From: Candidatus Buchananbacteria bacterium
GTDB taxonomy: Bacteria; Patescibacteriota; Patescibacteriia; 2-01-FULL-39-33; JBAYJR01
Direction: 5' to 3'
Length of the DNA: 64,000 bases
NCBI GenBank assembly: GCA_041665005.1
Contig: JBAYJR010000001.1
Location: forward strand, 4,727-68,726
The position numbers and the translations under genes were made by a program. The stretch's first letter is position 1. Each line of letters begins with the position of its first letter. This document shows, piece by piece, positions 16,869-64,000 of this stretch. The notes under the pieces were generated by a model, which was given only the letters and a program-made list of their open reading frames with translations, was not told where the DNA came from and did not search any database.

Positions 16869-18050
16869 ATGTCTCAGCTCAAAGATAATTGCCAAGAACT
16901 TACCAACCTGCTTTTGGAACTTAAAAACCTTAAGTCGGAGTTTGATTTGGCTTATCAAGAAGCTTTGGTTAGTCGTGACCTGACTAAACTCAGGGGGTTA
17001 AAGATGCAAATTGAGAGCGAGGTAAGTAAATTAGAGGTTAAGGCCGATCCTTTTAATGTCGCCTTTGAAGTAGATTTGAGAAAAAAATTAGCTGAACAAA
17101 GTAATTTAGATTTTGTTGGTGCTTTCCATGAGGGCTGGGCTTTGGTTAAAAATGGTGTAGAATATTTTTATATAGATCGGACTGGCAAGGAAATTGGTCC
17201 GGTCATGTTTAGTCCTGTTAGGTATGATTATGCTCAAAATTTTTCAAACGGTTTGGCTTGGGTTGTAATAAGTGGAAAATATTTTTATATTGATTACACA
17301 GGCAAAGAAATTAGCGTTGAAAGATACGACGATGCTACTGACTTTAAGGAAGGCTTGGCGGGTGTTAAAAGAGGCAAAGAATGGTTTTTTATCAATCCTG
17401 CTGGTCAAGCAATTAATTTAGAAAGATATGATGATGTCGGCAACTTTTCTGAAGGCTTGGCTCGAGTTATAAAAAAACACACCCAGTGGTTTTATATTAA
17501 TCACGCTGGTCAAGAAATTAGCGCCGAAAGATACGATGGTGCTGAGGATTTTCATGAAGGCTTAGCTCGAGTTAGAAAAGATAACAAGTGGTTCTATATT
17601 AATCGAGTTGGTTCAGAATTAGTCTTGAAGGACTATGATTTTGTTGGTGATTTTGTTGGTGGCTTGGCCGTGGCCCGAAAGGATAAGAAATATTTATACA
17701 TTGATCACTCGGGTAAGGAAATTATTTCAGCCAAGTATAACGCGGCCGGTGGTTTTGTAGAAGGCTTGGCTTGGGTTAGGGAAGGCGAAAAATATTATTT
17801 TATTGATCGTACTGGTCAAGAAATTAGTGCCGAAAGATATGATCGTGTTGGCAACTTTTCGGAAGGCTTGGCTTTGGTTAGGGAAGACAATAAATATTAT
17901 TTTATTGATCGTGCTGGTCGAGCAATCAATCCCGAAAAATATGATTTTGCCGAAAATTTTTCAGAAGGCTTGGCTCGGGTTACAAAAGATGGCAAGTGGT
18001 TTTATATTGACCATGCCGGCCGCAAAATATTTGAGGGGGAATTGCCTTAA
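16869..18050 (+). CDS. Paralog A1: conserved N-terminal CxELT..LKxLKxEFDL module plus about nine WG-like beta-propeller repeats
   Basis: Repeats of the form [KE][WY]F[YF]I[DN]xxGxEIxxERYDxAxxFSEGLARV resemble the KWG / WG-containing repeat (PF14903); the N-terminal 60 aa are shared with A2, A3 and the B family. Confidence 0.6.
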   Translation: MSQLKDNCQELTNLLLELKNLKSEFDLAYQEALVSRDLTKLRGLKMQIESEVSKLEVKADPFNVAFEVDLRKKLAEQSNLDFVGAFHEGWALVKNGVEYFYIDRTGKEIGPVMFSPVRYDYAQNFSNGLAWVVISGKYFYIDYTGKEISVERYDDATDFKEGLAGVKRGKEWFFINPAGQAINLERYDDVGNFSEGLARVIKKHTQWFYINHAGQEISAERYDGAEDFHEGLARVRKDNKWFYINRVGSELVLKDYDFVGDFVGGLAVARKDKKYLYIDHSGKEIISAKYNAAGGFVEGLAWVREGEKYYFIDRTGQEISAERYDRVGNFSEGLALVREDNKYYFIDRAGRAINPEKYDFAENFSEGLARVTKDGKWFYIDHAGRKIFEGELP

Positions 18051-18053
18051 TCT

Positions 18054-19220
18054 ATGTCTAATCCGGGATACAATTGCCAAGAACTTACTAACCTACTTTC
18101 GGCACTAAAAAACCTTAAGTCTGATTTTAATCTGGCTTATCAAGAAATCTTGGTTAGCCATGATTTAAGTCTAGCTAGAGCGCTTAAAATAAAAGTTAAA
18201 GAAAAGGTTAATAGTTTAGAGGCAAGAACTAATCCTTTTAATATCGCCTTTGAAGTAGATTTGAGAAAAAACTTAGCTGAACAAAATAATTTAGATTTTG
18301 TTGGTGCTTTTCATGGGGGCTGGGCTAAGGTTAAAAAAGATGGAAAATATTTTTTTATTGATAAAACCGGCAAGGAGCTTAGTTCAGAAAGATATGAGAG
18401 TGTTGGTAATTTTTCGGAAGGCTTGGCTTGGGTAAGAGATTCCAGAGGGTCTATTTATATTGATCGGACGGGCCAAGAAATTAGTTTAAAAAGATATAAT
18501 GTAGCGGGTGATTTTCATGAAGGTTTAGCTAGGGTTTTTGATACTGGGGACCATTTTTTTATTAATCGTGCCGGTCAAGAAATTAGTTCCGAAAGGTATG
18601 ATTTAGCTAATAATTTTTCGGAAGGCTTTGCGGGCGTTAAACAAGCTGGAAAAATGTTTTTTGTTGACCATGCAGGTAAAAAGCTTAATTTTAAGGAAGA
18701 TTATAAAGAGGTTTGTGATTTTTCTGAAGGTTTAGCCCGAGTTTCTAAAGATAAGGTGATGTTTTTTATTGACTATACAGGTCAAAGAGGCGTCACAACG
18801 ACTTATGATAACGCTAGTAGTTTTGTTGGTGGCTTGGCTTGGGTTGAAAAAGATGGAGAAGTTTTTTATATTAATTATGCTGGTGAGAAAGTTATTTCAG
18901 TAAAATATGATTTTGCTGATGATTTTCACGAAGGTTTGGCCCGGGTAGAAAAAGATGGTAAGTGGTCTTTTATTGATCGCACCGGCCAAGAGATTAATGC
19001 TGAAAAATATGATTTTGCTTCTAATTTTTCAGAAGGTTTAGTCCGGGTTGTAAGAAATAAGGAGTGGTTTTATGTTGACCGTGCTGGTCAAGAAATTAGT
19101 GCCGAAAGATATGCCTTTGCCGAAAATTTTTCTGAAGGTTTGGCACGAGTCCAAGAACAAGAATATGGAGAATATTCTTATATCGACCATACTGGTCGTA
19201 AGATATTTGATGAGAAATAA
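18054..19220 (+). CDS. Paralog A2: same architecture as A1
   Basis: MSNPGYNCQELTNLLSALKNLKSDFNLAYQE ... followed by WG-like repeats; 3 nt gap from A1. Confidence 0.6.
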   Translation: MSNPGYNCQELTNLLSALKNLKSDFNLAYQEILVSHDLSLARALKIKVKEKVNSLEARTNPFNIAFEVDLRKNLAEQNNLDFVGAFHGGWAKVKKDGKYFFIDKTGKELSSERYESVGNFSEGLAWVRDSRGSIYIDRTGQEISLKRYNVAGDFHEGLARVFDTGDHFFINRAGQEISSERYDLANNFSEGFAGVKQAGKMFFVDHAGKKLNFKEDYKEVCDFSEGLARVSKDKVMFFIDYTGQRGVTTTYDNASSFVGGLAWVEKDGEVFYINYAGEKVISVKYDFADDFHEGLARVEKDGKWSFIDRTGQEINAEKYDFASNFSEGLVRVVRNKEWFYVDRAGQEISAERYAFAENFSEGLARVQEQEYGEYSYIDHTGRKIFDEK

Positions 19221-19229
19221 CTTTTATCT

Positions 19230-20390
19230 ATGCCCAATCCCAAACCCAACTGTCAGGAACTTACTAACTTACTTTTGGCACTAAAAAATCTTAAGCCTGA
19301 GTTTGATTTGGCCTATCAAGAAGCCTTAATTAGCCGCGATTTGACTAAACTTAGGGGATTAAAAATACAAATTGAGAGTAAGGTAAAAGAATTGGAGGCC
19401 AAGCTTGACCCTTATAACATTGAACTACGAAAGAAATTAGCCGAAGAAAATGACTTTGATTTTGTTGGTAATTTTCATGACGGCTGGGCAAAAGTCAAAC
19501 AGTGTGGAGAATGGTTTTATGTTGATTGCTCTGGGCAACGAATTAACTCGAAAGAATACGACATTGCCTGTGATTTTTCAGAAGGCTTGGCTTCGGTTTG
19601 TAAAGATCATCAATGGTTTTATATTGATTGTGCCGGCCAAGCAATTAATTTCGAAAAATATGATGTTGCCGATAATTTTTCGGAAGGCTTAGCTTGGGTT
19701 AGAAAACAGAATACCTTTTTTTATATTAATAAGATTGGTCAGGCAATTAATACTGAAACTTATAGCAACGTTAGCCGTTTTCGGGGAGGCTTGGCTCATG
19801 TGAAAAAAACTGGAAAAAATTTGCTTATTGAAGATTTGCTTATTGATAGAACCGGTAAAGAGATAAGTTTAGGAAAATATGATATGGTTGGTGATTTTTC
19901 GGAAGGCTTGGTAAGAGTTTATTGTAAAGATCAGGGATGGTTTTATGTTGACCGCATGGGTCAAGAAATTAGTGCCGAAAGATATGATGGTGCGGAGGAT
20001 TTTCATGAAGGCTTGGCTCAAGTTAAAAGACAGGGGCAGTGGTTTTACATTAACCAGTCTGGGCGAGCAGTTAATCAAGAAACATATGATTTTGCTTCTA
20101 ATTTTTCGGAAGGTCTGACCCGGGTTATGAAAAATAGAAAAATGTTCTATATTGATCACGAGGGTCAAACAGTTAATCAAGAAACATATGATGAGGCTAG
20201 AGATTTCTCGGAAGGCTTGGCTCCAGTTAGAAAAGATGATAAGTGGTTTTATATTGATCGCGCTTGCCAAGCAATTAATTCTGAAAAATATAATATTGCC
20301 TTAAATTTTTGTGGAGGATTGGCATTAGTTACAAAAGCCGGAGAACGGTTTTATATTGACCACACTGGTCGCAAAATATTTAAGGATTAA
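19230..20390 (+). CDS. Paralog A3: same architecture as A1
   Basis: MPNPKPNCQELTNLLLALKNLKPEFDLAYQE ... followed by WG-like repeats; 9 nt gap from A2. Confidence 0.6.
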   Translation: MPNPKPNCQELTNLLLALKNLKPEFDLAYQEALISRDLTKLRGLKIQIESKVKELEAKLDPYNIELRKKLAEENDFDFVGNFHDGWAKVKQCGEWFYVDCSGQRINSKEYDIACDFSEGLASVCKDHQWFYIDCAGQAINFEKYDVADNFSEGLAWVRKQNTFFYINKIGQAINTETYSNVSRFRGGLAHVKKTGKNLLIEDLLIDRTGKEISLGKYDMVGDFSEGLVRVYCKDQGWFYVDRMGQEISAERYDGAEDFHEGLAQVKRQGQWFYINQSGRAVNQETYDFASNFSEGLTRVMKNRKMFYIDHEGQTVNQETYDEARDFSEGLAPVRKDDKWFYIDRACQAINSEKYNIALNFCGGLALVTKAGERFYIDHTGRKIFKD

Positions 20391-20607
20391 TGATTTTATT
20401 CGTAGTTTAAAAACCCACTAGTTTAGCGGGTTTTTTAGTCTTTTTGGGACCGTTGACATAAGCTGATATTTAATTTTGAAATAACACTAAAATAGTTTAT
20501 AATATAGGCAGCTAAAATTAAAAACCAAAAGTCAAAAATCAAGATTGTTGGGGGCTACTAATTAGTATAATTTAACGTTTTGAGCTTTGACTTTTGATTT
20601 TTTTATT

Positions 20608-23600
20608 ATGTCATTTGTTCACCTACACACCCATTCGCATTATAGTTTGTTGGATGGTTTAAGCAAAATACCAGAATTAGTAAATCATGCCAAGGAATTG
20701 GGGATGCCGGCTTTGGCGTTAACGGACCATGGCGTAATGTATGGGGCGGTTGATTTTATGCAATCGGCGACTAAGGCGGGGATTAAGCCAATTATCGGCG
20801 TGGAGGCTTATGTTGCGCCTAATGGGCGGTTAAATAAGCGCCCTAAAATTGATGAACGGCCTTATCATTTGGTGTTATTAGCCAAAAATAATATTGGCTA
20901 TAAGAATTTGTTAAAATTAACCACAGCGGCACACTTAGAAGGTTTTTATTATAAACCGCGGATTGATTGGGAAATTTTAGAACAAAACCAGGAAGGTTTA
21001 ATCGCTTTAACCGCTTGTTTGCAAGGAGAGCTACCGCGAGCGATTTTAAATGATGATCCGAAGAAGGTTAAAGAATTAATTGAGCGTTTTCAAAAAATAT
21101 TTAAAGAAGATTTTTATTTGGAAGTTCAGCATCACCCTAGTTTGCCCAAGCAAAGGCAGGTTAATCAAGAAATTTTTAGTTTAGCTAAAGCCAATGGTAT
21201 TGGGGTAGTGGCCACCAACGACATTCATTACACCAAGGCTAGCGACGCCGAAGCCCAGGATATTTTGTTGTGCATCCAAACCAAAAAAGTTTTAACCGAT
21301 CCGGATCGTCTAAGTTATTTGGGTGAGGATTTTTCAATGCGTTCGCCCGAGCAAATGCAAAAAGATTTTAGCGATCATCCGGAAGTCATTAGTAATACTT
21401 TAAGAATCGCTGAACAATGCAATTGGCAGTTGGAATTTGGTAAAACCTTTTTGCCGCATTTTCCTTTACCGGCCGGAGTAACCCCAGAAAAATATCTGAG
21501 CGAGATGTGCTATAAAAATTTACCAACTAGATATCCGCAGGCGGTAACCGGCCCGGCGGCGACGGAAGTAAAAGAGCGTTTAGAATATGAATTAGGCATC
21601 GTGGGTAAAACTGGTTTTGCTTCATATTTTTTGATTGTACAAGATTTTATTAATTGGGCCAAAAACAATGGCGTGGTAGTTGGTCCGGGGCGTGGTTCCG
21701 CCGCCGGTTCGATCGTTGCTTTTTTAACTAATATTACTAATATTGATCCAATTAAGTATAATTTGCTGTTTGAAAGATTTTTAAATCCCGAACGTATTTC
21801 CATGCCGGATATTGATACTGATTTTGCCGATATTCGTCGAGATCAGGTATTACGGTATGTAGAACAAAAATATGGTAAAGATCACGTGGCGCAAATTATT
21901 ACTTTTGGGACGATGGCGGCTCGGGCGGTAATACGTGACGTGGGTCGAGCCATGAGCTTGCCTTATAGCTATTGCGATAAGGTGGCCAAGTTTATTCCGA
22001 TGATGACGCCGCTTAAAGAAGCCTTGGCAACCGTGCCGGAGCTAAAGGAGGTTTTAGCCACTGAGGATGGAAAAAAATTAATGGACATTGCTTTGCGCTT
22101 GGAAGGGGTAGCTAGACATTCCTCAGTTCATGCTTGTGGAGTAGTTATTACTAAAGAGCCACTAGTAGAATATTTGCCGCTACAATATTCACCCAGTGGT
22201 GATGAAGCAGTAATTACCCAATATTCTTTGCATCCGGTAGAGGATTTAGGTTTATTGAAAATGGATTTTTTAGGTTTAAAAAATTTAACAATCATTGAGC
22301 GCACTTTAGAAGTGGTAGAAAAAGTTCGGGGACAAAAAATTGATATTAATCAGTTGCCCTTGAATGATCAGGCCACTTTTAAATTATTACAAGAAGCAGA
22401 AACTACTGGAGTATTTCAGATAGAAAGTTCGGGGATGAAAAGATATTTAAAACAATTAAGGCCGACGGAATTGGAAGATATTATTGCCATGGTGGCTTTG
22501 TATCGTCCCGGTCCAATGGAATATATTCCTGATTATATTGAAGGTAAGCATGGCCGTAAGAAAATAGAATATTTAGATCTTAGATTAAAGCCAATTTTGG
22601 AAAAAACTTACGGTATTGTGGTTTATCAAGAGCAATTGATGCAAATTGCCCGTGATTTGGCCGGTTTTACTTTAGGTCAGGCAGATGTTTTGCGTAAGGC
22701 AGTTGGTAAAAAGAATTTAAAACTTTTGAAAGAGCAGGAAGAAAAAATGATTGCCGGCATGATTAAAAATAAAATTACCCAAAAAGTAGCGCAACAAATT
22801 TGGAATTTTATTTTGCCTTTTGCGGCTTATGGGTTTAATCGTTCTCACGCGGCTTGTTACGCAATGATTGCTTATCAGACCGCTTATTTGAAGGCACATT
22901 TTGCCCCAGAATTTATGTCTTCGTTATTAACTTCTGACCAAGGTGATATTGAGCGCGTAGCCGAAGTTGTTGAGGAATGCCGGCAAATGGGGATTGCGGT
23001 TTTACCGCCAGATATAAATGAAAGTTTTAAAACTTTTACGGTGGTGGCCGAAACACTAGAGACGGATCAGCCGCGGTTGCGTTTTGGTTTATTGGCGATT
23101 AAAAATATGGGAGAAAATATTGTCAGTGCGATTATTAGTGAACGCAAGGCCAATGGTGTTTATAAAAATTTAGAAGATTTATTGTCGCGGGTTAAAAATA
23201 AGGATTTAAATAAAAAATCTTTGGAGGCTTTAATTAAGTCTGGCAGTTTGGATAGCTTTGGTGAACGCAATCAATTGCTAAAAAATATTGAAAAAATGTT
23301 ACAGTTTACCAAGGAAGTAAATAATCACGAAGAAACTCAACAGGTTAGTTTGTTTAACGAGTTACCACAGGCTATGTTGGTTTCTTTGCGTTTAACCGCT
23401 TATCCGGAGGCCTCTAAGGCTGAAAAATTGGCCTGGGAGAAGGAGTTTTTGGGTTTATTTATCTCTGAACACCCTTTGAAGGATTATGAGGCAGTTTTAC
23501 AGGGCTTGACGGTTAACACTAATCAATTATTCTCAAAGGCGAGTCAGGTGGTTAAAATTGCCGGAATCGTTACGGCGGTTAAAAGAATCTTTACTAAAAA

Positions 23601-51752: not shown

Positions 51753-51824
51753 GCCGCCATCGTCTAGTGGTTAGGACGCTAGGTTCTCATCCTGGTAACA
51801 GGGGTTCGATTCCCCTTGGCGGTA
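51753..51824 (+). tRNA. tRNA-Glu (anticodon CUC)
   Basis: Manual cloverleaf: acceptor GCCGCCA/TGGCGGT, D-arm GTCT/GGAC, anticodon stem CTAGG/CCTGG with loop TTCTCAT, T-arm AGGGG-TTCGATT-CCCCT, discriminator A; no encoded CCA. Confidence 0.85.
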
Positions 51825-55143: not shown

Positions 55144-55207
55144 TTTTGTCATTCCGGCCTACGAGCCGGAATCTAGCCCCTTTGTCATTCCTGGCTTGAC
55201 CAGGAAT
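55144..55207. repeat. Two tandem 36 nt repeats, each TTTGTCATTCC followed by a palindromic hairpin (CCGGC...GCCGG and CCTGG...CCAGG)
   Basis: tttgtcattccggcctacgagccggaat / tttgtcattcctggcttgaccaggaat; the stems are kept by compensatory changes. Confidence 0.7.
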
Positions 55208-55567
55208 CCGGATTAATTAATTTTGTCACTATTACTCCAGAAGTGATTACTTCTCAGCAGAACATTCTCCTTATTATTTCTTGTTCTTTTGGCAGCAAAA
55301 GAACCAAAACTGCTGGGTGACAAATTCACTAGTTGCTACTTAGGATATGTAGTGAATTAATCCTTGACGTTCAATTGTCACCCAGACCCAGGGTGGTTCT
55401 GCCCGCGTTAAATATAAATAATAATAAAAACACCCAATAGAACTTAGATTGGTTGTCGGACTAAGGATGGTTATCTGGGGTTTAGGTCGGTTGTAAAAAG
55501 TATGGGTTTTTGTTAAGATAGACAAAGCTTAACTGCTAAACATCAGTCAAATTTTTATAGTATTTAT

Positions 55568-56635
55568 ATGCCCCAACTTTGCCCCGAACTCACTACCAAA
55601 CTAGCCCCCCTCAAACAACTCAAACAAGAGTTTGATTTGGAATTAACCAAAGCTCAGAGTTTAAGTCCTAATAAACCAGAGGATTTAGTTTTGGTTAGGG
55701 AGGCTAAGATTAAATTAGAACAAGCCTCTCAAGCTTTTCAAGATCTCCAAAACGAACTCTGGTTAGAAACCCCCGAACTAACCCCAGAAAACCTTAAAGC
55801 CCAGTATGAAGCCCAAGTAGACATTCTCCGTAAAAACAACCTCCTAAAAACCCTCTCCACTGGCGAATTAGGTATTGAAGCAATTGATAAGCGGGAATAC
55901 CCCATACCAACTCTAGAACAAATAGAGTTTTTTATCTTAAAAAATAAAGAATTTTTGAAAACCAAAATTCCACAAGGCTTTGTTAAACTAATTATTGTTC
56001 CCTTTGGCTTGCCAATTAGTTCCCTAATAGAGGCTTATAGCAAGGCCTTAATCGAATGCCACAAACAAGGCTGTTTATATGATGCCCAATTCCTACATTT
56101 TGAGTTTAATGCAAAACCTATCCATGATTATACCGGATGGGTCAAAGCCGAAGCCACAGGAGAGCTAGTATATTTCCCCAAAGAATACTCAAAAACTACT
56201 CATCAAGGTAAAACTAAGCAAGAACTTTTACCTACTCAAGCTTGGCAAATTCTAATGCTTGAAGACTCGCCCGATATTCCAGATAAAGGCAAGGGCAAAA
56301 CCGTTAATGGTCGTCAGCAACCAGAAGCTAACCAATCACCCAATGACTATCTTAAACAACTCCAAACCAACCTTCAGTATAAAGGCGAACAAGGCTTAAC
56401 CCCAGAATCCTGGCTAGTTTATGGTTTAGATTATTTAAAAGAAGGACGCCAAATAATTGATAGCCGGCAAGATTACTATAGAGGCTGTATTATGGTTAAT
56501 AGTTATTTTAAAGAAACTGGTTATGTGCCGACAGCCTACCCTGGCCATGGCGATATGTCGGTCACTTTGGATCGGAAGAGCCCGAACGATTCCTGGACTA
56601 TCGGTGCCACCCGCTTTGCAGTAAGTATTCTTTAA
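55568..56635 (+). CDS. Paralog B1: conserved N-terminal MPQLCPELTTKL ... EFDLELTK module plus an unknown C-terminal domain of about 300 aa
   Basis: N-terminus homologous to A1-A3; C-terminal domain shared with B3 and B4 at high nucleotide identity. Confidence 0.6.
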   Translation: MPQLCPELTTKLAPLKQLKQEFDLELTKAQSLSPNKPEDLVLVREAKIKLEQASQAFQDLQNELWLETPELTPENLKAQYEAQVDILRKNNLLKTLSTGELGIEAIDKREYPIPTLEQIEFFILKNKEFLKTKIPQGFVKLIIVPFGLPISSLIEAYSKALIECHKQGCLYDAQFLHFEFNAKPIHDYTGWVKAEATGELVYFPKEYSKTTHQGKTKQELLPTQAWQILMLEDSPDIPDKGKGKTVNGRQQPEANQSPNDYLKQLQTNLQYKGEQGLTPESWLVYGLDYLKEGRQIIDSRQDYYRGCIMVNSYFKETGYVPTAYPGHGDMSVTLDRKSPNDSWTIGATRFAVSIL

Positions 56636-56645
56636 ATAAATTTGT

Positions 56646-57833
56646 ATGCCCCAACTTTGCCCCGAACTTACAACCAAGCTAGCCTCCCTCAAACAACTCA
56701 AAGCAGAGTTTGATTTGGAATTAACCAAAATTAAAAATTTAGATTCTAAAAAATCAGATGATTTAGTTTTGGTTAGGCAAATAAAAAATCAATTGGAGTC
56801 GACCTTGAAAAGTATCCAAGAAATTATGGTAACAGTTGATTGGAAAGATTTTTATTACAGAGAACTAACTTCTGTAGAAAACAAAAATAATTATCATGAA
56901 GAGCAGGTTCTTGAAGGAAACGGTAATGGAGTGTTAGCTTTGCAGGTTTTACATGGTGGACTACGGTTGGTTTCTGGTGGCGGCGATGGTACTATTAAGC
57001 TTTGGGAGTGGGAGCTAAATCTTCCTAGTCGGTATAAAGAGAAGCAAACTTTTTCGGAGCGTTACTCAGTTTCAGCCCTGCAGGTTTTACCTGATGGTAA
57101 TATTGTTTCGGCCGCTAGTAATGGGACTATGAAGATTTGGGATCGGAATATTTATGGTTTGGTTGAAACTTCGCAGATTATTAGAGAACATATGCAGGGT
57201 TATGTACAAACACTTAAGGTTTTTCCTAGTGGTCGAATTGTTGCCGGGATTAGTAATGGTGGTATTGAAATTTGGGATAAAGACAGTCAGGGTCAATATT
57301 ATCAGGCCCAGGGTATTGCCGGGTCGGGAGGTCATGTGCTGACCTTGCAAACTTTACCGGACGGTCAGATCTTTTTTAGCAATGGTAAAATCAATATTTT
57401 GCATCAGGACAGTTGGAATCAGTATGATAGATTACAAGAAATTGATAACCAAGATCTCTTCACTCTGGTTTTGCAAGTCTTGCCCGATGGTCGGATCGTT
57501 TCGGGCACTCTGCAAGGCGACATTCAAATATGGGATCAAGATGCCAAAGGTAAATACCAATTAACTCAATCTTTTTTTGGTCACAGAAATTCTGTACGAG
57601 ATTTGCAAGTCTTGCCCGATGGTCGGATTGTTTCTGGTGGCGGGGATTACACGGTTAAAATTTGGGAACAAGACCAAGCGGGTATTTATCGTAACATTGA
57701 AACACTTTCTAGTGCTAAGGTTACCAATGACCACGGATCGGTCTATACTTTGCAGGTTTTGGCTGATGGTCGGATTTTTGCGGGTTATGGTAATAATAAT
57801 GTTATAATCTGGGATGGTGATAAGGTAAAATAA
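56646..57833 (+). CDS. Paralog B2: same N-terminal module fused to a WD40-type beta-propeller
   Basis: Repeats GDGTIKLWEW, SNGTMKIWD, GGIEIWDKD, GDIQIWDQD, GGDYTVKIWEQD and LQVLPDGRIVSG. Confidence 0.65.
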   Translation: MPQLCPELTTKLASLKQLKAEFDLELTKIKNLDSKKSDDLVLVRQIKNQLESTLKSIQEIMVTVDWKDFYYRELTSVENKNNYHEEQVLEGNGNGVLALQVLHGGLRLVSGGGDGTIKLWEWELNLPSRYKEKQTFSERYSVSALQVLPDGNIVSAASNGTMKIWDRNIYGLVETSQIIREHMQGYVQTLKVFPSGRIVAGISNGGIEIWDKDSQGQYYQAQGIAGSGGHVLTLQTLPDGQIFFSNGKINILHQDSWNQYDRLQEIDNQDLFTLVLQVLPDGRIVSGTLQGDIQIWDQDAKGKYQLTQSFFGHRNSVRDLQVLPDGRIVSGGGDYTVKIWEQDQAGIYRNIETLSSAKVTNDHGSVYTLQVLADGRIFAGYGNNNVIIWDGDKVK

Positions 57834-57843
57834 ATAAATTTAT

Positions 57844-58926
57844 ATGCCCAGACTTTGTCCCAAACTTACAACTAAACTAGAATCCACCAAAGCGCTTAAA
57901 AAAGAGTTTGATTTGGAATTTACTAAAATTAGAAATCTAAACTCTAAAAAATCCGAGGATCTTATTTTCATCAGAGACATTAAATCCAACCTGAACCAAA
58001 CCCTCCAAGACCTCCAAAACCAACTCTGGCTAGAAACCCCCGAATTAACCCGAGAAAACCTTAAAGCCCAATATGAATTTCAGAAAAACCTTCTTATTAA
58101 GGCTGGCTTAGCAAAACCTCTCTCCACTGGTGAATTAGGTATTGAAGCAATCGATAACAAAGAATACCCCATACCCACCCTAGAACAGATTGAAGAAATG
58201 ATGCTAGAAAAACGTAAGTTATTAGAAACCAAAATCCCACAAGGCTTTGTTAAGTTAGTTCTTGTTCCTTTCGGCTTGCCAATTAGCTCCCTAATAGAGG
58301 CTTATGACAAGGCCCTAACGGAATATCATCAGCGAGGTGAGCTCCTAGACACCCAAAATAAACCTTTGGGGCTTGATAAAGAGATTGGTAAAAAGTTTAT
58401 TTATGATAATGGTGCTAAATATTATATCCAAGCCGAAGCCACGGGAGATTTAGTATATTTCCCTCAAGAATACTCCAAAATTACTCATCAAGGTAAAACC
58501 AAAAAACAACTCCTAGCCACCCAAGCCTGGCAAGTCCTACTACTTGAAGACTTGCCCGACCTTCCAGATCAAGGTCAAGGTAAAATCATAGCTAAACGCC
58601 AGCAACCAGAAGCTAACCAAATACCCAAGAAGTATCTTAGACAACTCCAGACCGACCCTCAGTATAAAGGTGAACAAGGTTTAACTCCAGAATCCTGGCT
58701 AGTTTATGGCTTAAGTCACTTAGTGCAAAGTAAACAAATGATTGAGAGCGGGGAAAGAGAATATGGTTATAGGGGTTGTTATTTACTTGATAGTTGTTTT
58801 AAAAAATCTGGTGACGTGCTGTACGCCTATTTATATCGTAGCGATGCGCGGGTCAGCTTGGTTCGGAGTGCTCCGGATAGTCACAATACCTACGGTGCCG
58901 GTCGGTTTTCGGTGAGTATTTCTTGA
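57844..58926 (+). CDS. Paralog B3: same architecture as B1
   Basis: MPRLCPKLTTKL ... then ETPELTRENLKAQYE ... GFVKLVLVPFGLPISSLIEAY. Confidence 0.6.
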   Translation: MPRLCPKLTTKLESTKALKKEFDLEFTKIRNLNSKKSEDLIFIRDIKSNLNQTLQDLQNQLWLETPELTRENLKAQYEFQKNLLIKAGLAKPLSTGELGIEAIDNKEYPIPTLEQIEEMMLEKRKLLETKIPQGFVKLVLVPFGLPISSLIEAYDKALTEYHQRGELLDTQNKPLGLDKEIGKKFIYDNGAKYYIQAEATGDLVYFPQEYSKITHQGKTKKQLLATQAWQVLLLEDLPDLPDQGQGKIIAKRQQPEANQIPKKYLRQLQTDPQYKGEQGLTPESWLVYGLSHLVQSKQMIESGEREYGYRGCYLLDSCFKKSGDVLYAYLYRSDARVSLVRSAPDSHNTYGAGRFSVSIS

Positions 58927-59294: not shown

Positions 59295-59576
59295 ATGAAC
59301 AAAAAAATCAGCGGACACCTTGATGCCCAGTGCTATGGTGTGACCACCTTGGGCGAGCGGGGACAAATTGTTATTCCTAACGAATTGCGCCAAGCTTTGC
59401 GTTTGCGAAGTGGTGATAAACTGCTAGTATTTAGTCGTTTTGATAAACTAATTGCTTTGGTTAAAGCCACAGAGTTGGAAAGTTTTTTAAATTATATGAT
59501 GAAAAAGTTTGGCCCAAAAATCATCCCAGCCCAGTATCGTTCGCATTTAGCCAAGGCTAAAACTAAGAAAAAATAA
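59295..59576 (+). CDS. AbrB/MazE/SpoVT-family DNA-binding protein
   Basis: Swapped-hairpin motif VTTLGERGQIVIPNELRQALRLRSGDKLLVF; promoter TTGACA-18-TATACT at 59232. Confidence 0.65.
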   Translation: MNKKISGHLDAQCYGVTTLGERGQIVIPNELRQALRLRSGDKLLVFSRFDKLIALVKATELESFLNYMMKKFGPKIIPAQYRSHLAKAKTKKK

Positions 59577-59639: not shown

Positions 59640-61217
59640 ATGAGTATGGTAAAAGTGTTTAAAAACAAATGGTTTTGGGTTGGCGCGGTAATTGTTATAT
59701 TGATTATCGGCTATTTTTGGTTAGCCGCCGGCAAGAGCACAGTAGTATATACTACGGAGCCGGTTAAACGAGCTAATATTATTCAAACCGTAACGGCTAC
59801 TGGCGAAGTACAAAGCGCTACGGAAATTAATTTAAATTTTAAAAATTCTGGTTGGTTGGCTAGATTAAATGTCAAAGTGGGTGACAAAGTTAAAGCCGGA
59901 CAAGAATTAGCGCAGTTACAAAATGGTTCGTTAGTGGCTTCGGTAATGGCGGCGCAAGCTAATTTGACTAAAGTTTTGGCCGGTACAGCCGCCGAAGATA
60001 TTAAAATTTACGAACAAAGCGTGGCCAAAGAACAAGCGGCTTTGGATACTTTATTGAGTAAGCGTGATCAGGATTTAGTCACCTCTCGTAACAAAGTATT
60101 AGACGCTTTAAATAATGCCAATTTTGCGGCGGCCGTGGCCTTGAATACGGTTTATAAAGATTTAATTGATACTAATAATATCAGCAATTTAAATGTTATG
60201 CAGACTAGTTTGTATAACAATATTTCGCCTGGTTACAGTTTAGCCAATAGCAAATTAATTTCGGCCAAAAATTTTTATACCACGGCGGCTAGCACTAGAA
60301 ATGATTTAGATATTATTGCGGCAGTTAACGCTACCAAGGAAGCCTTAAATCAGTTGACAATTTTATTAAGTAATTCTTTTGAAGTGGCCGATTCAATCAT
60401 TCTTAATAGTACTTATACCCAAAGCAAAAAGGATACCATCAAAACCGAAATTACTACCGAACAAGGTAATACTAATGCTAATCTAACGGCGGTAGAAACG
60501 GCTCGGGCGACTTTGGTTAACGGTGCGGCTTCGTATGAAAGTCAAATTAAAACGCAACAGGCAGCCTTGGCTTATGCCCAGGCTCAGTTGGCTCAAAAAC
60601 AAGCTCCGGCTAAGCAATACGATGTGGATTATTATCGTGCGCAGTTGCTACAAGCGCAGGCTAATTTAGGAGATACGATTATTCGGGCGCCGATTGATGG
60701 GGTAATCACCAAAAAGAATTACGAGGTAGGTGATCAAGTTTCACAAACCAACCCGGTGTTAGTTATGATGGGTAATAGCAACTTAGAAATTGAAGTTAAC
60801 ATTCCAGAATCGGACGTGGCTAAATTAAAAGTTGGTCAATCGGTGGATATTACTTTGGATGCATTTGGGGAAGATATTCCTTTTAAAGGCCAGGTGACTT
60901 TTATCGATCCGGCCGCTACCAAAATTTCGGACGTGGTTTATTATAAAACCAAAGTTACTTTAGATGACAATAAAGAGGCGATTAAACCGGGTATGACGGC
61001 TAATTTAACAATTACTACGGCTAATCGCGAAAATGTTTTGGTTACCTTGCAACGTGCGGTAATTAGTAAAGATGGTCAAAAAACGGTACAGGTCTTAGTG
61101 GCCGGTCAGCCGGTAGAAAAGCCAGTTGAATTGGGTTTGTGGGGTGATGAAGGTTTGGTGGAAGTATTAAGCGGTTTAACTGAGGGGGAACAAGTAGTTA
61201 CCTTTACTAAAAAATAA
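59640..61217 (+). CDS. HlyD/MacA-family membrane fusion protein (periplasmic adaptor)
   Basis: N-terminal TM helix, long coiled coil, barrel-sandwich block IIRAPIDGVITKKNYEVGDQV. Confidence 0.8.
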   Translation: MSMVKVFKNKWFWVGAVIVILIIGYFWLAAGKSTVVYTTEPVKRANIIQTVTATGEVQSATEINLNFKNSGWLARLNVKVGDKVKAGQELAQLQNGSLVASVMAAQANLTKVLAGTAAEDIKIYEQSVAKEQAALDTLLSKRDQDLVTSRNKVLDALNNANFAAAVALNTVYKDLIDTNNISNLNVMQTSLYNNISPGYSLANSKLISAKNFYTTAASTRNDLDIIAAVNATKEALNQLTILLSNSFEVADSIILNSTYTQSKKDTIKTEITTEQGNTNANLTAVETARATLVNGAASYESQIKTQQAALAYAQAQLAQKQAPAKQYDVDYYRAQLLQAQANLGDTIIRAPIDGVITKKNYEVGDQVSQTNPVLVMMGNSNLEIEVNIPESDVAKLKVGQSVDITLDAFGEDIPFKGQVTFIDPAATKISDVVYYKTKVTLDDNKEAIKPGMTANLTITTANRENVLVTLQRAVISKDGQKTVQVLVAGQPVEKPVELGLWGDEGLVEVLSGLTEGEQVVTFTKK

Positions 61218-61226
61218 ATTGGTTTT

Positions 61227-61952
61227 ATGGATAAGCAAACAATCATAAAAATAGTTGATTTGTGTAAGGATTATGTTAATGAGGGAGTGGTTACCGATGT
61301 TTTACACGGCATTACTTTTGAAATTAAAGCTGGTGAATTTGTGGCGATTATGGGGCCGTCGGGTTCTGGTAAATCTACTTTAATGCATATTTTAGGATTT
61401 CTAGATTCGCCGACTACCGGTGAATATTATTTTGATGGTGATGACGTAAAAAAATTAACGGATGAAGAAATGGCTAAGGTGAGAAATCAGAAAATTGGGT
61501 TTATTTTTCAACAGTTTAATTTGTTACCCAAAACCTCGGTTTACGACAATGTTAAATTGCCGCTGCTATATGGCAAGTATACTGATATTGATGGACGAGT
61601 CAAAAAGGCGATTACGGCCGTTGGTTTGGAACATCGGTTAAATTATTTATCCAACCAATTATCGGGCGGAGAAAAACAGCGAGTAGCCATTGCTCGATCT
61701 TTAGTGACTGATCCCAAAGTAATTTTTGCGGATGAACCGACAGGCAACCTTGACTCTAAATCCGGCAAACAGATTATGAATATTTTAAACCAGTTAAACG
61801 AAGAGGGCCACACTATCATTTTGGTAACGCACGAAACTTATACCGCCGAACATGCTAAGCGTATTTTAAAAATTAAAGACGGTTTGATGGTGGAAGACAG
61901 ATTAGTAGATGAACAAACGAGAAAAAATGCTTTGGCGGGTATTTTGAAATAG
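61227..61952 (+). CDS. ABC transporter ATP-binding protein (MacB/LolD/FtsE-like)
   Basis: Walker [10 protein letters not shown], signature [15 protein letters not shown], Walker [12 protein letters not shown]. Confidence 0.9.
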
Positions 61953-61966
61953 TAATAATTGTTTTT

Positions 61967-63211
61967 ATGGATCTTATTGGTAATCTTAATTTATCTTATA
62001 AAAATTTAACGGTAAATAAAACCCGGACTTTACTGACCATGTTGGGCTTGATTATTGGTATTTCTTCGGTGATTATTATTATGTCGGTCGGGGCCGGAGC
62101 CCAGAGCTTGGTTTTGAACCAGGTTAAAAGTGTGGGTACTAATTTAATTGGCGTGTTACCGGGGGCTTCTGACGAAAATGGTCCACCGGCGACGGCTTTT
62201 GGTTCGGTAATTACGACTTTAAAATATGATGACGCGGTTGCTTTGGCCAAAAAAAGTAATGTGCCTTATGCGGTGGCGGTGGCGCCTTATGTTAAGGGTA
62301 CGGGCACGGTTACTTGGCAGTCGCATTCGTTAGACACTAATTTTAGTGGTACCTCGGCTAGTTATATAGAAGTTGAAGAGGGGGCTAAAGTAATTAGTGG
62401 TCGATTTTTTAATCTTGATGAAGAAAAAAATTTAGCGCGGGTAGCGGTGTTGGGCAGTGAAGTGCGGGATAAATTATTTGAACAAAACGATCCCATTGAT
62501 CAACAAATTAAAATTAAAAATGAAACTTTTAAAGTAATTGGCGTGATGGAGCCACGAGGCGTTTCGGGTTTTCAAAATCAAGATGACCAGATTTTTATTC
62601 CGGTTTCTACCGCGCAGAAATTATTGTTAGGCATAAATTATTTAGGTTTTATTCGGGTGCGGGTAGATAGTGTTGACAACATTCCGCAAACCATTGAAGA
62701 TGTTAAGGCCACTTTGCGTTACCAACATAACATTAAAAAAGCTAAAGACGATGATTTTAGTGTGCGGAGCGCCACGCAAATGTTGGATGTTTTTGGCACC
62801 GTAACCAGTGCTTTGAGTTTATTTTTAACGGCGGTAGCAGCTATTTCTTTGTTGGTTGGCGGAATTGGGATTATGAATATTATGTTAGTAGCGGTAACCG
62901 AACGGATTCGCGAAATTGGCTTGCGCAAAGCTGTAGGAGCAACTCGGCGTGATTTATTGGAGCAGTTTTTAATTGAAACGGTAATTATTACTTCTTTTGC
63001 CGGTTTGCTAGGTTTAATTTTAGGCATAGTCTTTTCTTTTTTAGTGGCAATGGTTGCGCAATATTTAGGTTATGCTTGGGATTTTGTAGTGCCGGTCTGG
63101 TCAATTATTTTATCTTTTGGTATTGCAGTAATTATTGGTTTTTTATTTGGGTTATACCCAGCCTATCAAGCGGCCAAATTAGATCCGGTAGTCGCATTGC
63201 GTAAAGAGTAG
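61967..63211 (+). CDS. ABC transporter permease (FtsX/MacB-type)
   Basis: N-terminal TM helix, large periplasmic domain, C-terminal FtsX domain with three TM helices. Confidence 0.8.
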   Translation: MDLIGNLNLSYKNLTVNKTRTLLTMLGLIIGISSVIIIMSVGAGAQSLVLNQVKSVGTNLIGVLPGASDENGPPATAFGSVITTLKYDDAVALAKKSNVPYAVAVAPYVKGTGTVTWQSHSLDTNFSGTSASYIEVEEGAKVISGRFFNLDEEKNLARVAVLGSEVRDKLFEQNDPIDQQIKIKNETFKVIGVMEPRGVSGFQNQDDQIFIPVSTAQKLLLGINYLGFIRVRVDSVDNIPQTIEDVKATLRYQHNIKKAKDDDFSVRSATQMLDVFGTVTSALSLFLTAVAAISLLVGGIGIMNIMLVAVTERIREIGLRKAVGATRRDLLEQFLIETVIITSFAGLLGLILGIVFSFLVAMVAQYLGYAWDFVVPVWSIILSFGIAVIIGFLFGLYPAYQAAKLDPVVALRKE

Positions 63212-63231
63212 ATTATTTTTAATAAATTTAT

Positions 63232-64000
63232 ATGCCCAGACTTTGTCCCAAACTTACAACTAAACTAGAATCCCTCAAAAAACTCAAACAAGAGTTTGAT
63301 TTGGAATTGACTAAAGTTAAAAACCCAGACTCCAAAAAGTCCAATGATCTTATTTTCATCAGAGATATTAAAGCAAAACTAAACCAAACCCTTCAAGACC
63401 TCCAAACTGAACTCTGGCTAAAAACCCCCGAACTAACTAAAGAAAATCTTGAAGCCCAATATGAATTCCAGAAGAACCTTCTTCTAAACTCAGGCCTGCT
63501 AAAAACCCTTTCTACTGGTGAATTAGGTATTAAAGCAATTGATAAGCAGGAATATCCCATACCTACCTTAGAGCAGGTTGAAGAAAATATTATAGATAAA
63601 AGAGAGTTGCTTGAAGCTAAGGTTAATCAAGGCTTTGTTAAACTAGTTCTTGTCCCCTTTGGTTTGCCAGTCAGCTCTTTAATAGATGCTTACGACAAGG
63701 CCCTGATGGAACACTATCAACAAGGTGAGTTATTGGACGCCCAAAATAAATTATTAAATATTTATAAAAGGCCTGATGATGAGGAGTTTATTAGTGATCA
63801 TACTGGATACCCCGAAGCCGAAGCTAAAGGGGATTTAGTATATTTTCCCAAAAAATTCTCTGCTAATCATCAAGGTAAAACCAAGCAAGAACTTTTACCC
63901 ACCCAAGCCTGGCAAGTTCTATTACTTGAAGACTTGCCGGATCTTCCAGATAGAGATCAAGGCAAAACCAAGGCTGGTCGCCAGCAACCGGAAGCTTGCC
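63232..64000 (+). CDS. Paralog B4: same architecture as B1/B3, 3' end beyond the window
   Basis: MPRLCPKLTTKLESLKKLKQEFDLELTK ...; about 85% nucleotide identity to B3 over the aligned stretches; ORF is open to the window end. Confidence 0.6.
   Translation, partial: MPRLCPKLTTKLESLKKLKQEFDLELTKVKNPDSKKSNDLIFIRDIKAKLNQTLQDLQTELWLKTPELTKENLEAQYEFQKNLLLNSGLLKTLSTGELGIKAIDKQEYPIPTLEQVEENIIDKRELLEAKVNQGFVKLVLVPFGLPVSSLIDAYDKALMEHYQQGELLDAQNKLLNIYKRPDDEEFISDHTGYPEAEAKGDLVYFPKKFSANHQGKTKQELLPTQAWQVLLLEDLPDLPDRDQGKTKAGRQQPEAC

Follow-up and report, generated by a model that had tools for sequence, protein, structure and literature searches.

Why does a gene begin with DNA that it shares with its neighbours, and with codons that differ from those in the remainder of its reading frame? 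This question is raised by B2 (positions 56646–57833, plus strand; 395 aa), located in a window of 64,000 nucleotides from a metagenome-assembled genome (MAG) of Candidatus Buchananbacteria (Patescibacteria/Candidate Phyla Radiation, CPR; locus tags WCW02_). B2 is one of seven genes in the window, named A1–A3 and B1–B4, whose proteins all share a homologous N-terminal module some 60 residues long. A preliminary description regarded B2 as a chimera and the module as a carrier of its own codon usage, either moving as a recombination cassette onto different bodies or being of different origin. Its observation is partly confirmed: a step in composition and identity is real, located at codon 29 and expressed in the choice of C versus G, not in the GC content of third codon positions (GC3). 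Its interpretation is partly supported. According to our analysis, B2 is an old WD40 paralog, the first 87 nt of which were probably replaced lately by the consensus allele of younger paralogs.

The shared 5′ end of B2

B2 encodes the module, a flexible linker and a seven-bladed WD40 propeller; reading frame and module-plus-WD40 architecture are real, as described before. The WD40 part is matched by PF00400 in three stretches (E = 2.5e-31, 107 bits versus a cutoff of 27). An AlphaFold2 (AF2) model with a predicted local distance difference test score (pLDDT) of 85.8 comprises two helices at residues 6–31 and 37–63, a disordered stretch at residues 64–73 (pLDDT < 50), and 28 strands forming seven propeller blades at residues 80–393, mostly with a pLDDT of 83–95.

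On the DNA level, four parts can be distinguished on the plus strand. Segment 1 (56646–56732; codons 1–29, helix 1) is of consensus type, C-rich and G-free, and is read here as a putative recent gene-conversion tract. Segment 2 (56733–56834; codons 30–63, loop and helix 2) is homologous to the module as protein, but its DNA has diverged, with 46–68% nt identity to every paralog, and is not C-rich. The linker DWKDFYYRELTSVENKNNY (56835–56882) is conserved with WD40 homologues in other organisms, and its pattern W..F(Y/D)..VEKK.NY is common to the proteins P0091, P0072 and P0057 and to the paralogs at locus L075; thus, residues 64–79 of B2 belong to the WD40 family and not to B1 or B3. The propeller (56883–57824) is close in composition to the genes on the same strand, but T-rich (C 0.14, G 0.19 and T 0.53 at four-fold degenerate sites).

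In comparison with B1 (55568–56635, plus strand; 355 aa, WCW02_00335), B2 is 91% identical over nt 1–87, 59–64% identical over nt 88–171, and unrelated beyond (Fisher test, p = 3.6e-5). B3 (57844–58926, plus strand; 360 aa), a B-family paralog with 62% amino acid identity to B1, reaches 79% over nt 1–87 and 60% thereafter. The near-identity to both neighbours that had been described for some 60 codons therefore holds for about 29 codons and for B1. A 23-mer quoted in the preliminary description has exact copies only at the starts of B1 and B2 (two occurrences, zero expected by chance). The tract is not peculiar to these neighbours: nt 1–87 are also 83–90% identical to at least 14 further paralogs, four of which reach 89–90%, such that B1 is closest by a small margin. 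Aligning B1, B2 and B3, a check proposed at the outset, places the step in identity at nt 87, where it coincides with the step in C usage. It lies inside the helical hairpin and not at the domain boundary near residue 63.

Usage of C at four-fold degenerate sites amounts to 8 of 13 in codons 1–29 (G: 0 of 13), 1 of 6 in codons 30–57 and 19 of 137 in the body. Codons 1–29 hence differ from the rest of B2 (20 of 143, p = 2.9e-4) and from the same-strand genes (0.20, p = 0.0013). Over 60 codons, the fraction of third positions occupied by C (C3) reaches 0.18; with 0.123 ± 0.048 in the background, this value falls only within the top 13%, so that the richness in C-ending codons applies to codons 1–29 rather than to the entire shared start. 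The codon ctg, listed among the C-ending ones, neither ends in C nor occurs in frame in this stretch. The WD40 body is roughly host-like with respect to C3 (0.12) and G3 (0.21), as had been stated, but not to T3 (0.46 versus 0.36).

B2 is one of at least seven WD40 (W) paralogs in this genome, and the six others share module and linker. Measured against these six, its body is saturated at synonymous sites (proportion of synonymous differences, pS, 0.63–0.74; proportion of nonsynonymous differences, pN, 0.35–0.41). For codons 2–29, pS drops to 0.16–0.43 in five of the six comparisons and is 0.81 in one, and for codons 30–60 it is 0.62–1.0. Between B2 and the paralog W15, synonymous differences number 3 of 19 in the tract versus 159 of 216 in the body (Fisher test, p = 9e-7). 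Family-wide, the mean pS of codons 2–29 (0.51–0.54) is not lower than that of the bodies (0.52–0.59), which shows that synonymous sites in these codons are not constrained in general. For nt 1–87 of B2, synonymous divergence is well below that of the flanking sequence in the same pairs, a pattern indicative of gene conversion.

Discordant identity within the module is also visible in other pairs of genes with different bodies. It changes from 91% to 55% between B3 and a 250-aa module gene, from 98% to 55% between a partial B paralog (o09 on L074) and a 424-aa gene (o18 on L081), from 97% to 80% between P0020 and a WD40 gene, and from 94% to 85% in a further cross-body pair. These mosaics point to recombination between paralogs that carry different bodies. 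Short near-identical tracts between otherwise diverged paralogs are familiar from gene-conversion mosaics and concerted evolution. In the present family, homologous recombination or gene conversion among paralogs would patch the 5′ ends of module genes. In B2, the consensus allele found in younger B and WD40 paralogs would have taken the place of codons 1–29, which end in or near the hairpin loop, in recent times. The remainder of the gene is anciently diverged, its older body having drifted to the T-rich composition of its strand. The C-ending, G-avoiding codons of the tract are the ordinary usage of the presumed donor genes over their whole length, equal to that of opposite-strand genes.

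The combination of module and WD40 propeller is not confined to this genome. A word-indexed search with a 61-aa profile had recovered six short proteins and no known member. When all seven modules of the window served as query in an exhaustive profile search, 20 proteins were identified, in 19 of which the module begins within the first five residues; the exception, a repetitive protein of 993 aa, is probably spurious. The bodies found comprise the B body, the C body, WD40 (P0057, as well as P0072, which belongs to another organism), WG repeats (P0073), RNI-type leucine-rich repeats (LRR; P0074, LRR_6, E = 5e-7) and one more body, about 310 aa long. For P0091 (375 aa), the alignment with B2 spans the full length (100% coverage), with an ancestral-type module, the linker W..F..VEKK.NY and the end ...IWDGDKV. 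Since fusions of the module to WD40, WG and LRR bodies also occur in other organisms, fusion is old. B2 as judged from these alignments is thus not a one-off local chimera but represents an established module-WD40 architecture, shared with P0091 and P0072.

Alternative explanations for the tract

The step in B2 could be taken to mean that the ~60-codon module itself is a mobile cassette, or foreign, and brings its own C-rich usage to host-like bodies. Apart from the sharp step in B2 and the presence of the module on many bodies, this idea can draw on consensus codons 1–29, in which four-fold C reaches about 60–70% in eight genes, nominally above the 32–40% of the B bodies. These eight homologous copies of 13 codons, however, amount to about one observation, and 8 of 13 differs from the 0.35 of opposite-strand genes at p = 0.08. 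The step is located at codon 29, not at the module boundary. In B1, B3, B4 and P0004, C usage does not differ between module and body (p > 0.3), and the difference in P0002 is marginal (p = 0.044); the usage found there equals that of the opposite-strand genes of the genome. Modules on six other non-B genes, including three C-type bodies and two WD40 genes, are not C-rich (10–21%). The A-family N-termini, to which the same C-rich bias had been ascribed, show four-fold C in 3 of 19, 0 of 22 and 7 of 18 cases (16%, 0% and 39%), the third value (A3) not being significant. GC3, one of the quantities by which the preliminary description wished to be judged, is 0.35–0.38 in the modules and 0.357 ± 0.071 in the background, so that its reading is refuted on this measure and an elevated GC3 is rejected as codon signature. 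A mobile or foreign module is thereby largely refuted, and we regard it as quite improbable; what stands of the cassette idea is that many bodies carry the module and that paralogs recombine, with an exchanged unit that ends at about codon 29 and does not comprise the whole module. Still less probable, and in fact already contradicted, is a recent fusion in which unequal crossing-over within the tandem array gave the 5′ end of a B1-like gene to a WD40 gene that had no module. B2 does lie between B1 and B3, the junction motif is common to them, and B1 is nearest over nt 1–87. Yet codons 30–63 are module-like as protein with only about 60% DNA identity to any paralog, so B2 already had a module; six further WD40 paralogs of this genome bear module and linker alike, and P0091 and P0072 carry an ancestral-type module in other organisms.

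A different alternative invokes selection in place of conversion: codons 1 to about 30 would be kept G-free and C/A-rich for an unstructured start lacking a Shine-Dalgarno sequence, and near-identity would reflect constraint on the mRNA. In its favour, the minimum free energy of positions −20 to +87 is −9.2 for B2 and −9.5 for B1, compared with −17.6 ± 5.5 in 49 other genes (96th percentile), the fraction of G in the start region is 0.10–0.11 versus 0.19, four-fold G is zero in codons 1–29 of most B and W genes, and the 10-nt junctions are AT-rich and without Shine-Dalgarno sequence. It is opposed by the mean pS of codons 2–29, which is as high among paralogs as in the bodies, by a poverty in G that spans whole genes, and by pair-specific runs of 94–98% identity beside segments of 55–85%, which look like exchange. 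As a full explanation we consider selection unlikely; it may contribute at the 5′ tract, without explaining the pair-specific mosaics or the whole-gene bias. Several points nevertheless weigh against the replacement of the B2 start by conversion. Synonymous sites in the tract number only about 19, selection that preserves a consensus-like sequence could produce the semblance of conversion, and the unusually unstructured 5′ regions of B1 and B2 fit selection on the start region. Five paralogs are almost equally close (89–91%), and none stands out as the donor. Moreover, conversion is read from pairwise identity and pS. On balance, replacement of the first 87 nt by conversion remains the probable reading.

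Codon usage across the module genes

Genes of the window show a strong strand asymmetry at third positions. Plus-strand genes have C3 of 0.12 and G3 of 0.23, minus-strand genes 0.24 and 0.12, respectively, with a GC3 of 0.36 on both strands. At four-fold sites, the values for C and G are 0.20 and 0.265 on the plus strand and 0.35 and 0.117 on the minus strand. This asymmetry is not symmetric, which implies a coding-strand component of C over G in addition to replication skew.

The B genes deviate from their own strand. Stratified by codon box, their preference of C over G yields a Mantel-Haenszel odds ratio of 6.5 in comparison with same-strand genes (p = 1.6e-38) and of 1.6 in comparison with opposite-strand genes. 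It holds within every four-fold box, and the B genes resemble opposite-strand genes also in two-fold codons and in the choice of Leu CTN versus TTR. In B1 and B3, C3 exceeds G3 over the whole length, and B4 likewise prefers C over G throughout. Among the younger B and WD40 paralogs, the bias of C over G extends across entire genes and is not a property of the module. Core B genes and five WD40 paralogs (body pS 0.34–0.55) have four-fold C of 0.29–0.42 and G of 0.03–0.13; older or divergent members, i.e., B2, W14, P0019–P0021, the C bodies and the A family, are T-rich and still poor in G. Taken together, four-fold G ranges from 0.03 to 0.18 (mean 0.10) in 31 measurable module genes, versus 0.14–0.36 (mean 0.26) in 34 same-strand neighbours (Mann-Whitney U test, p = 9e-12). 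At all loci that could be read, except the ambiguous L098, module genes are co-oriented with neighbours that prefer G over C.

Several simple causes were rejected. Amino acid composition does not account for a bias that is present within every four-fold box. Codon box and following base predict a G fraction of 0.277, whereas 0.099 is observed. High expression fails, as the same-strand chaperone genes encoding DnaK, GrpE, DnaJ and Hsp20 prefer G over C; the opposite-strand genes with C over G include low-expression enzymes, and among them are L1 and L11 in addition to tdk, thyX, tmk and gyrB. An inversion of the B1–B3 block is contradicted by the body of B2, which carries the same-strand signature, and by 13 of 16 B paralogs at other loci, which prefer C over G though co-oriented with G-over-C neighbours.

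A similar lean is found in other genomes. For this comparison, 72 loci of B homologues were collected by a scan of genome contigs, in which the present MAG is not included. Four-fold G-C skew is −0.25 in the homologues versus +0.02 in their co-oriented neighbours (36 of 45 loci, 19 of 26 genomes, p = 8e-4). In Candidatus Uhrbacteria GW2011_GWE2_46_68, B genes are T-rich, with a four-fold G of 0.11 versus 0.21–0.23 on both strands and a Leu CTN:TTR count of 1155:176. The LCMS01 contigs of this organism (L036–L069) carry an independent expansion of the B body with about 20 loci in one genome. Some B-family homologues (L001, L002, L007, L009, L013, L027 and others) stem from bins labelled "uncultured Gammaproteobacteria" or "Bdellovibrionales"; these could be mis-binned CPR contigs or indicate a wider distribution of the family.

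Two causes of the G-poverty of the superfamily are likeliest: either a C-rich founder cassette recently gave rise to a burst of segmental duplication, or mutation or selection acts in a strand-asymmetric manner specific to this family. A founder burst followed by amelioration, with fast change from C to T and slow regain of G, fits the series from young to old members. It poorly explains, on the other hand, that the saturated members B2, W14 and the A family are poor in G, and it gives no account of the like lean of B homologues in 19 of 26 other genomes. Compositional amelioration in general means that a signature marks the donor and decays with age. The signature observed here differs in being a synonymous skew from G to C and T, as in opposite-strand genes, and not one of GC content, and it occurs on unrelated bodies and in other genomes. 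The case of B2 also illustrates that a gene-conversion event can be dated and given a direction by a local step in codon usage, with no foreign origin implied.

Genomic context and possible role of the module

The module follows the pattern M-x3-6-C-x-E-L-T-x2-L-x3-K-x-L-K-x-E-F-D-L ... D-L-x3-R-x2-K. AF2 models predict the same hairpin in B1 (helices 4–31 and 37–64, pLDDT 87.7) and B2, such that the module is a predicted two-helix hairpin with an invariant Cys near its N-terminus. No match to Pfam, NCBIfam or PADLOC was obtained for the module, the B body, the C body or the 250-aa body. Searching the module against Pfam at E ≤ 1 returned one insignificant match (Tweety), and a sequence profile search of the PDB returned insignificant coiled-coil matches only. 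The B body, present in B1 as an orphan alpha/beta body, yields a confident alpha/beta model without a fold match in the PDB; its invariant residues are Y80, K133, K217, R249, E274 and E280. B1 and B3 have no Pfam match. No description of this family was found in the literature.

Additional contigs of the MAG were recovered by a DNA-pattern scan of metagenome contigs. They raise the number of distinct module genes to 33 in about 170 kb of genome, which is a lower bound: 17 B, seven WD40, three WG and six others (with a body of 236–252 aa, a 414-aa protein and a 424-aa protein). Hence, no fewer than five unrelated bodies in this genome are headed by the module. The MAG contains 20 paralogs of B1 with 41–69% identity, and core B paralogs show a pairwise synonymous divergence (dS) of 0.5–0.75 and a dN/dS ratio of 0.3–0.4. 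The three WG genes of the window, A1, A2 and A3 (16869–20390, plus strand), are arranged in tandem and combine a divergent module (NCQELTNLL...EFDLAYQE) with WG beta-repeats (PF14903, WG_beta_rep; E = 7.7e-74, 4.3e-61 and 5.2e-46, respectively). B4 (63232–64000, plus strand), a B-family paralog, is cut by the end of the window and measures 362 aa when complete (P0015); it is followed, just beyond the window, by the 250-aa module gene with a different body.

Module genes are organized in tandem runs, e.g., in the order WD40, 236 aa, WD40, B at L075:6851–11059. The junctions between B1 and B2 (56636–56645, plus strand) and between B2 and B3 (57834–57843, plus strand) are both 10 nt in length and part of a recurring stop-to-start motif, TAAATAAATTT(A/G)TATG, without Shine-Dalgarno sequence. 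Together with the end of B2, the B2-B3 junction matches the one that follows the WD40 gene L075:6851–8017 at 93% identity. As stop-to-start junctions (TAAATAAATTTATATG) and the ends of preceding genes are conserved between loci, segmental duplication of multi-gene units is indicated. The WD40 paralog at L075:6851–8017 (388 aa) has blades that are near-perfect repeats (TLQVLPDGRIVSGSDDKTIKIWQPDSxGNYKNTQTL), which suggests a recent internal homogenization.

Upstream of B1, the head of its cluster, lies a conserved non-coding leader (55353–55567, plus strand). Leaders of 85–200 nt are common to five cluster heads, B1 and those on L075 (about 6600–6850), L079, L086 and L120. About 85 nt of the leader carry a promoter-like arrangement, TTGTAA-17 nt-TGTTAAGAT, and three of the loci have an additional block, about 110 nt long, with the hairpin CACCCAGACCCAGGGTG. 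The leader has no match in Rfam. In the 440-nt spacer before B1, two adjoining small hairpins with the common head TTGTCATTCC (…GGCCTACGAGCCGGAATC and …TGGCTTGACCAGGAATCC) are located at 55146–55215 and do not recur elsewhere in the window. Rfam yields no family in the B1–B3 region; its sole match in the window is a tRNA gene at 51753–51824. Scans for promoters and terminators were overall at chance level.

Concerning the neighbourhood, no partner gene consistently adjoins the module clusters, which are surrounded by housekeeping genes, an ABC exporter and further module genes. A MacA-ABC-permease exporter operon (window 59640–64000; L073:6409–13144) has B4 and the 250-aa module gene inserted between two of its permease genes, both of the MacB/FtsX type, and a MazE/AbrB-like gene (59295–59576) is located upstream of this operon. 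On L075, giant proteins (987 aa and 4057 aa) that carry T4SS_pilin and Big_5 domains are encoded at 17124–21059, about 6 kb from a four-gene module cluster.

Judging by architecture and analogy, the hairpin may be a common docking or oligomerization handle by which interchangeable bodies (WD40, WG, LRR and orphan folds) are recruited to one partner or associate among themselves. The main alternative is a secretion or targeting signal. The invariant Cys, found at residues 5–8, comes directly behind M-P/S-x-x and precedes a charged amphipathic helix; reading the alignments by eye, without a predictor, we saw no hydrophobic h-region before the Cys as in a lipobox or Sec signal. Type VII secretion substrates (PE/PPE, WXG100 and LXG) likewise combine an N-terminal helix-turn-helix hairpin with variable C-termini and form large families with gene conversion among paralogs. 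The module matches none of the WXG100, LXG or PE families in Pfam or NCBIfam, and no WXG or YxxxD/E motif was noticed by eye in the module alignments, with no dedicated motif search.

In its architecture, the module seems to resemble most the logic of adaptor domains or of F-box families, though it could be assigned to neither. F-box families of eukaryotes and Legionella-type effectors place a short N-terminal helical module on WD40, LRR or propeller-like bodies and have undergone large lineage-specific expansions. The likeness is one of architecture only: no F-box model matches at E ≤ 0.1–1, both AF2 models are two-helix hairpins and not three-helix F-boxes, and the module has an invariant N-terminal Cys. 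We know of no Skp1-like partner in these bacteria. Tup1/Groucho proteins also join a helical N-terminal oligomerization segment, a flexible linker and a seven-bladed WD40 propeller. Here, too, profile matches are insignificant (Tup1 N-terminus, E = 0.3; TRAF7 coiled coil, E = 0.41), and unlike in Tup1/Groucho the module also heads non-WD40 bodies. Effector-associated domains (EADs) and bacterial Death-like adaptors are small, often alpha-helical terminal modules for which homotypic coupling has been proposed (Kaur, Burroughs, Iyer and Aravind 2020, PMC7159879). In both cases, proteins of one genome share the module on different effector or repeat domains, and copies within a lineage are closest to each other (PMC7159879). 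Our module differs in having no sequence match to the described families, and in occurring in tens of copies in tandem runs; its host, moreover, belongs to the CPR and is not multicellular. No linked nucleoside triphosphatase (NTPase), vWA-MoxR or STAND core was seen beside the module clusters.

A more far-reaching proposal, which we put forward as a doubtful one, is that of a previously undescribed combinatorial system of CPR/Patescibacteria. A Cys-bearing two-helix handle would dock dozens of interchangeable bodies (WD40, WG, LRR and at least two orphan folds) to one another or to a partner they have in common. The family, with at least 33 genes in a genome of about 1,000 genes, would be diversified by segmental duplication and short-tract gene conversion, and subject to a family-specific, strand-asymmetric regime of mutation or selection that removes G from synonymous sites regardless of body, paralog age and host lineage. 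Such a regime could act, e.g., via a single-stranded or opposite-sense intermediate in propagation or repair, or through selection for G-poor, unstructured mRNAs independent of Shine-Dalgarno sequences.

The genomes of CPR bacteria are tiny, and these bacteria live in attachment to other cells. Even so, the genome studied here gives dozens of genes to one uncharacterised superfamily of binding-domain proteins with a common N-terminal handle, and such families are prime candidates for interaction with a host or partner. Their G-poor signature on unrelated bodies, and in B-family relatives of other genomes, is hard to explain by strand, expression, amino acid composition or context. Should a family-specific process truly lie behind it, the signature would offer an unusual handle on how such families spread.

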